Below the pieces are notes generated by a model. It did no database searches, had not been told where the DNA came from, and was given only the letters and a program-made list of their open reading frames with translations. Shown here one piece after another: positions 16,944 to 17,458 of a stretch of DNA of 64,000 nt. The position numbers were made by a program, and so were the translations under genes. Position 1 is the stretch's first letter, and each line of letters starts with the position of its first letter. The stretch comes from Escherichia coli (lineage in GTDB: Bacteria; Pseudomonadota; Gammaproteobacteria; Enterobacterales; Enterobacteriaceae), in NCBI RefSeq assembly GCF_003334355.1, contig NZ_QOWP01000003.1, one strand, 5' to 3'.

Positions 16944-17216
16944 TCAACTGCGAATATCATCATACTCCCGCGTTTTATCAAATTCGTGTTTCGCAAATGG
17001 GCATAGTGGGATAATTTTTCGTTTTTCCCGACGCATTTTTTCCACGACTTTCGCAACCAGCTGTTTACCAATCCCTTGCCCTTTCAGGCTTTCATCGACA
17101 TCGGTATGTTCGATAATCGCTAAATTCTCTCCGGTCGGCACAAAAACAATTTCAGCGATTTGCTTGCCTTGTTCGTCATTAATGTAAAATTTATTGTGGC
17201 CTTCGCGTATTTCCAT
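16944..17216 (-). CDS. yjdJ: YjdJ, small GNAT-like (acetyltransferase-fold) protein
   Basis: ORF track 90 aa; recognised as YjdJ; contains the GNAT-like segment [15 protein letters not shown]. Confidence 0.85.
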
Positions 17217-17227
17217 TTTACCCTCGC

Positions 17228-17458
17228 TTATTTATGACGGTATTTCAGCGCGCCGCTCGGGCACGTATCAATCACTTTAACCACAGTGACGACGTCGACT
17301 TCATCCGGCATGATCCACGGCTTTCGTTTGAGATTAAATAACTTGCCGTTGCCACGTACGCAATTGCCAGAATGCTGACATATCGCAGTGTTGAAATAGA
17401 CATCGATCTTTTCGCCGGTATAACAGCGATAACCCTCGTCCAGTAGCGCCTGATCCAT
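17228..17458 (-). CDS. yjdI: YjdI, small Cys-containing protein (divergent ferredoxin-like)
   Basis: ORF track 76 aa; Cys pattern C-x4-C-x5-C ... C; recognised as YjdI; 11 nt upstream of yjdJ on the same strand. Confidence 0.85.

Follow-up and report, generated by a model that had tools for sequence, protein, structure and literature searches.

Among the conserved, stress-induced genes of Escherichia coli without an assigned function are yjdI and yjdJ, two short reading frames lying side by side. The question raised by this locus is whether they are simple neighbors or one functional unit and, in the latter case, what chemistry they might share. The stretch of DNA analyzed here, referred to as the window, spans 64 kb, and its ORF listing places both genes on the minus strand, with yjdI at positions 17228 to 17458 (76 amino acids plus stop) and yjdJ at positions 16944 to 17216 (90 amino acids plus stop). 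These positions agree exactly with a first-pass annotation of the same DNA, which had described two same-strand ORFs separated by 11 nt. The E. coli flanks of the pair are ghoS/ghoT, downstream on the same strand, lysU, and the divergent dcuS-dcuR genes; the E. coli sequence NZ_CP067245 is 100% identical to the window over 1.5 kb, and the 515-bp pair was found in 5392 of 5426 complete E. coli genomes.

Both are real genes rather than chance ORFs, since YjdI matches Pfam Fer4_19 (PF06902; E = 2.7e-29, model positions 1 to 64 of 64), YjdJ matches Acetyltransf_CG (PF14542; E = 1.1e-24, model positions 1 to 80 of 80), and PDB entry 5I0C is E. coli YjdJ itself (1.4e-56), with E15 in the window versus K15 as the single difference. 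NCBIfam gave sub-threshold matches only for YjdI and YjdJ, and an Rfam search of positions 14000 to 20500 returned zero RNA families. RefSeq labels the products “4Fe-4S mono-cluster protein YjdI” and “GNAT family N-acetyltransferase.” Databases or papers already cover the two genes and their families, the structure of YjdJ, the identity of Fer4_19 as an Fe-S domain, and the Listeria operon described below. Calling the genes uncharacterized, as had been done, is only partly true, since a crystal structure exists for YjdJ and spectroscopy on YjdI is reported from a PhD thesis (Bak). What is added here is a corrected cysteine motif, the rejection of an argument drawn from the neighborhood, and the joint documentation of the pair, its fusions, and its promoter element.

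Conservation of the gene pair and its fused forms

The intercistronic spacer (17217 to 17227, minus strand) is 11 nt long, reads GCGAGGGTAAA, and holds the yjdJ Shine-Dalgarno sequence GAGGG at positions 17225-17221, 4 nt ahead of the yjdJ ATG. A consensus scan of the minus strand found no promoter or terminator between the two genes. A set of 81 loci was compared, made up of the best 80 loci of a scan with one genome per species plus the E. coli reference locus (L001); the scanned loci cover about 15 enterobacterial genera, all Enterobacteriaceae, and the distant contexts come from single look-ups. A yjdJ homolog lies directly downstream of yjdI on the same strand in all 81 loci, always after a spacer of 8 to 16 nt (11 nt in 46 loci and 10 nt in 30). 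In Listeria monocytogenes, the YjdI/YjdJ homologs lmo0133-lmo0134 form one operon by RNA-seq (PMC2813243). The short spacer with its Shine-Dalgarno sequence, the scan for internal signals, the tight spacing across the loci, and the Listeria operon together support the co-transcription proposed in the first-pass annotation, and yjdI-yjdJ is predicted to be a two-gene operon.

That annotation had also taken absence of the pair outside E. coli as a point against its reading. We looked for the pair there and found it kept in Listeria, in Enterococcus, in metagenomes, and in fused form. In Listeria fleischmannii, Fer4_19 is followed by Acetyltransf_CG after a 12-nt gap, and YjdI is ~70 to 74% identical to that of E. 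coli; in Enterococcus, the same two genes overlap by 4 nt, and three metagenomic lineages have the same gene order with gaps of 1 to 4 nt and 49 to 59% identity. Look-ups of Trichococcus and of the homolog P0146 found no GNAT neighbor of the YjdI-like gene.

An exhaustive HMMER search retrieved 1125 representative homologs (50%-identity clusters), and domain architectures were counted on the 141 newly retrieved representatives among the top 150. Seven of these 141 clusters (at least seven overall) are single polypeptides with an N-terminal Fer4_19 domain and a C-terminal mini-GNAT, an architecture confirmed by Pfam on the subset scanned. Fusions of Fer4_19 to CDGSH domains account for 23 of the 141, of which 16 were Pfam confirmed in the scanned subset. 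Proteiniclasticum carries a Fer4_19-GNAT fusion, and the carriers seen in AFDB include Psychrobacillus, Enterococcus cecorum, Brevibacillus, Paenibacillus, Pseudolactococcus, Flavobacterium, Aquimarina, and Chitinophaga; the fusions span Bacillota and Bacteroidota, with the domains in the order of the gene pair. An N-terminal L..GY[RK]xY segment is present in GNAT-associated YjdI proteins and missing from CDGSH-fused domains, and we regard it as a candidate contact surface.

Clustering of the nearest flanking ORFs at the 81 loci gave 47 unrelated groups. That YjdI and YjdJ work together is best supported by their strict adjacency amid such changing neighbors, together with the recurrent fusions that keep the gene order, and this evidence suggests that yjdI-yjdJ should be studied as one unit.

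Promoter element, predicted transcript ends, and stress regulation

A consensus scan for a sigma-70 promoter upstream of yjdI on the minus strand found none, and the promoter element described here was found only through cross-genus alignment. Across 23 genera or species, the sequence ahead of yjdI could not be aligned save for two blocks, the Shine-Dalgarno sequence and GCTATGCTTA. The former is GAGGG at positions 17465 to 17469 (minus strand) in the window, and GAGG is kept at the same distance in all aligned upstream regions. The latter resembles a -10 element located 33 to 34 nt upstream of the yjdI ATG; in the window, the extended element GCTATGCTTAT occupies positions 17492 to 17502 on the minus strand, with the hexamer TATGCT at 17500-17495, a C at -13 (position 17501), and a poor -35. 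With at most one mismatch, CTATGCTTA occurs 28 to 46 nt (mostly 33 to 34 nt) before the ATG in 66 of the 81 loci, where 0.011 occurrences per 80 nt are expected; the remaining loci have degenerate versions of the element. Promoters selective for sigma-S typically have a C at -13, a TAYRCT hexamer, and a weak -35. The yjdI element is of this type, and we infer sigma-S dependence in E. coli from the sequence together with growth-phase data. Transcription is predicted to start near position 17488, giving a 5′ untranslated region of ~30 nt.

In E. coli O157:H7, yjdI and yjdJ go up at the transition to stationary phase and early in it, along with known RpoS genes (PMC2241611), and both genes are also up after a rapid acid shift (PMC2270276). 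Likewise, the L. monocytogenes lmo0133-lmo0134 operon is sigma-B dependent (PMC2813243; PMC7690807). The stress link suggested in the first-pass annotation is therefore upheld by the conserved sigma-S-type element and by published expression, and fails where it was drawn from the neighborhood. A sigma-54 ChIP listing of yjdI is irrelevant here; the gene is merely the nearest one downstream, 7.7 kb from a binding site inside melB.

At the other end of the predicted operon, a scan of positions 16100 to 17750 found no canonical terminator. A GC-rich hairpin at 16884 to 16914 (minus strand; AUGCUCUCC...GGAGAGCAU, 9 bp) lies ~30 nt past the yjdJ stop, has a folding energy of -26.7 kcal/mol (z = -2.2), and may act as a weak or noncanonical operon end. 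Since it is not followed by a U tract, read-through from yjdJ toward ghoST is possible in E. coli. Several other genera have a canonical GC hairpin and T run directly 3′ of yjdJ.

YjdI and YjdJ as individual proteins

The first-pass annotation had suggested a metal or Fe-S site in YjdI from a C-x4-C-x5-C...C pattern. That spacing is wrong, as the cysteines are arranged C12-x14-C27-x5-C33-x32-C66; the Fe-S site itself is supported by the Fer4_19 match and by a predicted single-cluster ferredoxin fold. The putative cluster motif reads C27-x-H29-S30-x2-C33...C66-P67 (C-x-H-x3-C-x32-C-P). Among 12 close YjdI homologs (63 to 86% identity), C27, H29, C33, C66, and P67 are invariant, and the C12 position is occupied by A, V, L, K, R, or Q; a four-cysteine site including C12 was rejected because of this variability. 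Among 63 diverse homologs, conservation is complete for C33 and C66 and 90% or higher for C27 and H29. R45 and K46, in an R45-K46-P47-W48 stretch, are also nearly invariant among close homologs.

A PDB sequence search with YjdI found no solved relative. An AF2 model of the protein (pLDDT 91, pTM 0.76) was compared with the PDB by Foldseek, and its ten best fold matches were all 3Fe/4Fe single-cluster ferredoxins, including 1FXR, 1VJW, 4OV1, 2Z8Q, 1IQZ, 1SIZ, and 8AMP, so that YjdI is predicted to adopt a single-cluster ferredoxin fold. The C27-x2-S30-x2-C33...C66-P67 arrangement points to the ligand layout of such ferredoxins, in which the second cysteine of CxxCxxC has been replaced, as in 3Fe ferredoxins. 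Two Fer4_19-GNAT fusion clusters or lineages carry the full four-cysteine CxxCxxC. A [3Fe-4S] cluster, possibly convertible to [4Fe-4S], is the most likely occupant of the three-cysteine site of YjdI (CxxSxxC...CP). In the Fer4_19 domain of the class E flavodiiron protein of Syntrophomonas wolfei, EPR and resonance Raman spectroscopy identified a [3Fe-4S]1+/0 cluster at +70 mV, of which the conserved His is not a ligand (bioRxiv 10.1101/2024.04.03.587993). The thesis spectroscopy on E. coli YjdI (Bak), as cited in that preprint, gave a UV-visible spectrum similar to that of the S. wolfei domain (bioRxiv 10.1101/2024.04.03.587993).

The acetyltransferase-like fold previously ascribed to YjdJ was borne out by the Pfam match and by solved structures, as the PDB search returned, besides 5I0C, the S. 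aureus homolog (1R57/2H5M). The acetyl-CoA motif (Q/R-x-x-G-x-G/A) is present as Q47-G-I-G50. C72 and K67 are invariant across 26 aligned pairs and fusions; in one fusion lineage (P0223/P0268), the glycine motif is degenerate and the Cys is retained. The single published activity test found, a KAT screen, saw no acetyl-lysine band on overexpression of YjdJ alone (PMC6199490). This result is compatible with a need of YjdJ for a partner and fits equally a YjdJ that is no protein acetyltransferase at all.

A proposed joint module, its alternatives, and known systems

We propose that yjdI-yjdJ is a self-contained, stress-controlled bicistronic operon whose products act jointly as an Fe-S-dependent acyl-CoA module, a reading to which we assign a probability of about 0.5. 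Under general-stress (sigma-S-type) control, translationally coupled synthesis would allow YjdI to associate with YjdJ, probably 1:1. YjdJ is a truncated GNAT, missing the N-terminal arm with which full-size GNATs bind their substrate; it would bind CoA or acetyl-CoA, with its invariant C72 beside the acetyl group. YjdI would supply a redox-sensing, electron-transfer, or docking part for the chemistry at the CoA site. In stationary phase or under stress, the state of the Fe-S cluster might then govern acyl transfer or CoA-thiol chemistry at C72. We infer the physical YjdI-YjdJ complex, the redox gating, and the substrate; the [3Fe-4S] cluster of a Fer4_19 domain and the stress induction of yjdI-yjdJ are taken from the literature, whereas the gene structure, the family assignments, the folds, the conservation of pair and fusions, and the conserved promoter element come from the present analysis.

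The natural fusion P0127 was modeled with AF2 using a paired alignment of 26 pairs and fusions. Its domains were predicted with a pLDDT of 88, and its GNAT half superimposes on 5I0C at 0.7 A. Because the pTM was 0.55 and the whole chain agreed poorly with AFDB fusion models (TM ~0.5, rmsd 10 to 13 A), no reproducible YjdI-YjdJ interface is predicted from these models. Foldseek matched the whole fusion poorly to full-size GNATs (rmsd 17 to 18 A), which leaves unsupported the notion of the ferredoxin domain as a structural substitute for the absent N-terminal arm.

A two-component or single-chain enzyme in which a [3Fe-4S] subunit reads redox state, oxygen, or iron and switches the minimal GNAT is a tentative possibility. 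YjdI-YjdJ would then be the founding example of such an Fe-S-gated acyl-CoA enzyme, and bacteria as far apart as E. coli and Listeria would possess, within their general stress response, acetylation or CoA-thiol chemistry that is switched under redox control. More generally, if the Fe-S protein controls or completes the mini-acetyltransferase, the general stress response of Gram-negative and Gram-positive bacteria alike would tie acyl-CoA chemistry to iron-sulfur or redox sensing, and this could hint at the role of the eukaryotic homolog NATD1. Studying the pair as a unit may also explain the inactivity of YjdJ tested alone. If the coupling is false, yjdI-yjdJ is a well-annotated small operon without known function.

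The two proteins might instead be co-expressed and otherwise independent, with YjdI as a free low-molecular-weight ferredoxin for another redox enzyme, YjdJ as a stand-alone acetyltransferase of small molecules or proteins, and the promoter alone being shared. Each family occurs without the other, AF2 predicts no fixed interface, and Fer4_19 serves as an electron-transfer center in a flavodiiron protein, all of which agree with independence. Nevertheless, we consider it rather unlikely, since gene fusion in the same order, repeated in several phyla, and strict adjacency over Proteobacteria and Bacillota while all other neighbors change are difficult to account for unless the two proteins interact directly in function.

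The joint module could alternatively work on CoA thiols, with the CoA site and C72 of YjdJ handling CoA disulfides, persulfides, or protein CoAlation and YjdI transferring electrons. The invariant Cys adjoins the CoA site, and the pair is under general-stress regulation. Some distant contexts are suggestive as well: the Proteiniclasticum fusion gene adjoins rhodanese, CoA-disulfide-reductase-rhodanese, and CsoR/CstR-like repressor genes, another Fer4_19-GNAT fusion lies inside a MarR-pirin-flavodoxin-aldo-keto-reductase cluster, and the L. fleischmannii pair is preceded by a metallo-beta-lactamase-fold gene and a glyoxalase gene. These heterogeneous contexts hint at thiol or electrophile stress. 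However, they differ in every lineage and have no neighbor in common, and one-electron Fe-S chemistry is no obvious fit to two-electron disulfide reduction, which makes this chemistry doubtful.

In a further reading, YjdI is itself the substrate, acetylated by YjdJ at K46 to tune or stabilize its cluster. YjdJ is a minimal GNAT without an obvious substrate pocket, and the Pfam description of Acetyltransf_CG is said to propose a macromolecular substrate for the family. The near invariance of R45 and K46 among close homologs would fit, and a fusion would tether enzyme to substrate. Yet the K46 position is R in the fusions P0127, P0144, and P0168 and V in P0223, enzyme-substrate fusions are unusual, and the KAT screen gave no acetylated band for YjdJ, with chromosomal YjdI probably at a low level there; we regard acetylation of YjdI as very improbable.

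Finally, a functional tie of yjdI-yjdJ to the type V toxin-antitoxin ghoST or to the C4-dicarboxylate sensor dcuSR, for which physical adjacency, in Escherichia only, and the divergent intergenic region common to yjdI and dcuS could be cited, is refuted as a general explanation, as only Escherichia loci have them next to the pair (ghoS and ghoT in 5 and true dcuSR in 6 of the 81 loci), while about 15 other genera, in ~75 loci, retain yjdIJ among unrelated genes. Because these neighbors are restricted to Escherichia, the position of the pair is uninformative on its function, and the stress role read from its place between the toxin-antitoxin pair and dcuSR, given the 47 unrelated flank clusters, has been abandoned. 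A ghoST-associated toxin-antitoxin or antiphage defense module was rejected on the same counts, PADLOC defense-family profiles having no match at yjdI-yjdJ.

Among known systems, the S. wolfei class E flavodiiron Fer4_19 domain (PF06902, formerly DUF1271) shares with YjdI the Pfam family and the CxHx3C...x32-33...CP motif; identity is ~30%, and its authors give 1.5 A for the superposition of the two AlphaFold models (bioRxiv 10.1101/2024.04.03.587993). It is the C-terminal domain of a 508-amino-acid oxygen-reducing enzyme, where it serves as an internal electron-transfer center, whereas YjdI is a free 76-amino-acid protein that is paired with a GNAT and has the N-terminal L..GY[RK]xY segment.

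Type 7 CDGSH proteins, which combine DUF1271/Fer4_19 with one or two CDGSH [2Fe-2S] domains (PMC3174974; PMC5859297), have the domain of YjdI in common with the pair. Their partner, unlike YjdJ, is a second Fe-S domain and not a CoA-binding one, and they are without the GY[RK]xY segment; the E. coli yjdI locus has no CDGSH partner. CDGSH is the commonest fusion partner among distant YjdI homologs in the 141 newly retrieved clusters. That distant Fer4_19 domains are mostly fused to CDGSH instead of a GNAT is an observation that speaks against a joint module.

Classical [3Fe-4S]/[4Fe-4S] ferredoxins share the predicted fold of YjdI (Foldseek probability 0.94 to 1.0, TM 0.53 to 0.68), as seen for D. 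africanus FdI (1FXR) and the ferredoxins of T. maritima (1VJW), P. furiosus (1SIZ/2Z8Q), and M. tuberculosis (Fdx, 8AMP). They also share the C-x2-X-x2-C...C-P ligand layout, the second cysteine being replaced in YjdI as in 3Fe ferredoxins. However, sequence identity is only 12 to 24% with weak E-values (0.02 to 0.3), and YjdI is set apart by ~12 additional residues at its N terminus and by an invariant His at the second position past the first Cys.

YjdJ belongs to the same Pfam family and has the same fold as the COG2388 GNATs S. aureus SACOL2532 (1R57, 2H5M), A. thaliana At1g77540 (2EVN), and human NATD1, with which it also has its small size and conserved Cys in common. Acetyl-CoA binding by the SACOL2532 protein was reportedly described by Cort in 2008, and weak acetyltransferase activity of At1g77540 reportedly by Tyler in 2006. 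YjdJ belongs to a subset that is paired with or fused to a ferredoxin-like protein, whereas the eukaryotic members have no Fer4_19 partner, as Fer4_19 is absent from eukaryotes (PMC5859297). The two families are thus separable, Acetyltransf_CG occurring in eukaryotes, as the structural match to At1g77540 illustrates.

A further known system is lmo0133-lmo0134 of L. monocytogenes. This pair differs from yjdI-yjdJ in being under sigma-B control and not behind a sigma-S-type promoter, yet its genes are homologs of yjdI and yjdJ as stated by the authors, and they likewise form one operon under a general-stress sigma factor (PMC2813243; PMC7690807).

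Surroundings of yjdIJ in the window

The spacer separating yjdJ from ghoS, the nearer gene of the ghoST toxin-antitoxin pair, spans 226 nt (16718-16943). It contains a 9-bp GC-rich hairpin on the minus strand (16884-16914), which is preceded by a U run and followed by none. No canonical terminator was found between yjdIJ and ghoST in E. coli, whereas in other genera a clear terminator lies immediately 3' of yjdJ. Farther along, the lysyl-tRNA synthetase gene (14552-16096) adjoins cadA/dtpC, the position of lysU in K-12; PGAP names this gene lysS in the reference genome. Its annotated start codon is an ATG, and the mechanical ORF reaches 27 nt (9 codons) farther upstream, to a TTG.

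Strain variation and a Listeria homologue

YjdJ encoded in the window (CDS 16947-17216) carries glutamate at residue 15, while the crystallised E. coli protein (PDB 5I0C) carries lysine; this E15/K15 difference is a strain polymorphism. In strain MSB1_9D (NZ_LR890349.1), an IS5-like element of the IS903B family sits within the yjdIJ-ghoS locus, and thus the region adjoining yjdJ tolerates insertion; ghoS is annotated twice in this strain. A search of E. coli genomes with the yjdIJ segment returned 5980 matches, six of them plasmid-borne, and the segment was found in up to three places in some genomes.

Beyond the Enterobacterales, a YjdI homologue of Listeria fleischmannii (L082/L083, gene 4001-4255) shares approximately 70 to 74% identity with E. 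coli YjdI. Some Enterobacterales homologues, at 63 to 72%, are no closer. The comparison suggests that the yjdIJ pair has moved horizontally between Enterobacterales and Listeria.

Ferredoxin-GNAT fusion proteins and their gene neighbors

The fusion lineage represented by proteins P0223 and P0268, of 173 to 178 aa, has a classical four-cysteine CxxCxxC...CP Fe-S site in place of CxHx3C. Its GNAT half retains the conserved cysteine and has lost the Q-x-x-G-x-G glycine motif. An AFDB match, A0A0C2M7T7, is a 164-aa protein of the myxozoan Thelohanellus kitauei that bears the name "Protein NATD1"; its alignment spans the bacterial ferredoxin-GNAT fusion from end to end. Either bacterial sequence contaminates the T. 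kitauei assembly or the fusion occurs in a eukaryote, a group from which Fer4_19 is otherwise reported to be missing (PMC5859297).

At locus L090 (5001-5832), a stand-alone Acetyltransf_CG gene follows the Fer4_19-GNAT fusion gene after 20 nt. Both lie within a MarR-pirin-TMEM175 cluster; genes for flavodoxin-like, cupin, CMD, and aldo-keto-reductase proteins flank this stretch on both sides. On a Proteiniclasticum-type contig (L088, 5001-8536), four kinds of genes lie directly 3' of the fusion: a rhodanese gene, a gene for a rhodanese-domain protein similar to CoA-disulfide reductase, a second rhodanese gene, and a pair of genes for CsoR/CstR-like repressors. The arrangement resembles that of sulfide or persulfide stress (cst-like) operons.
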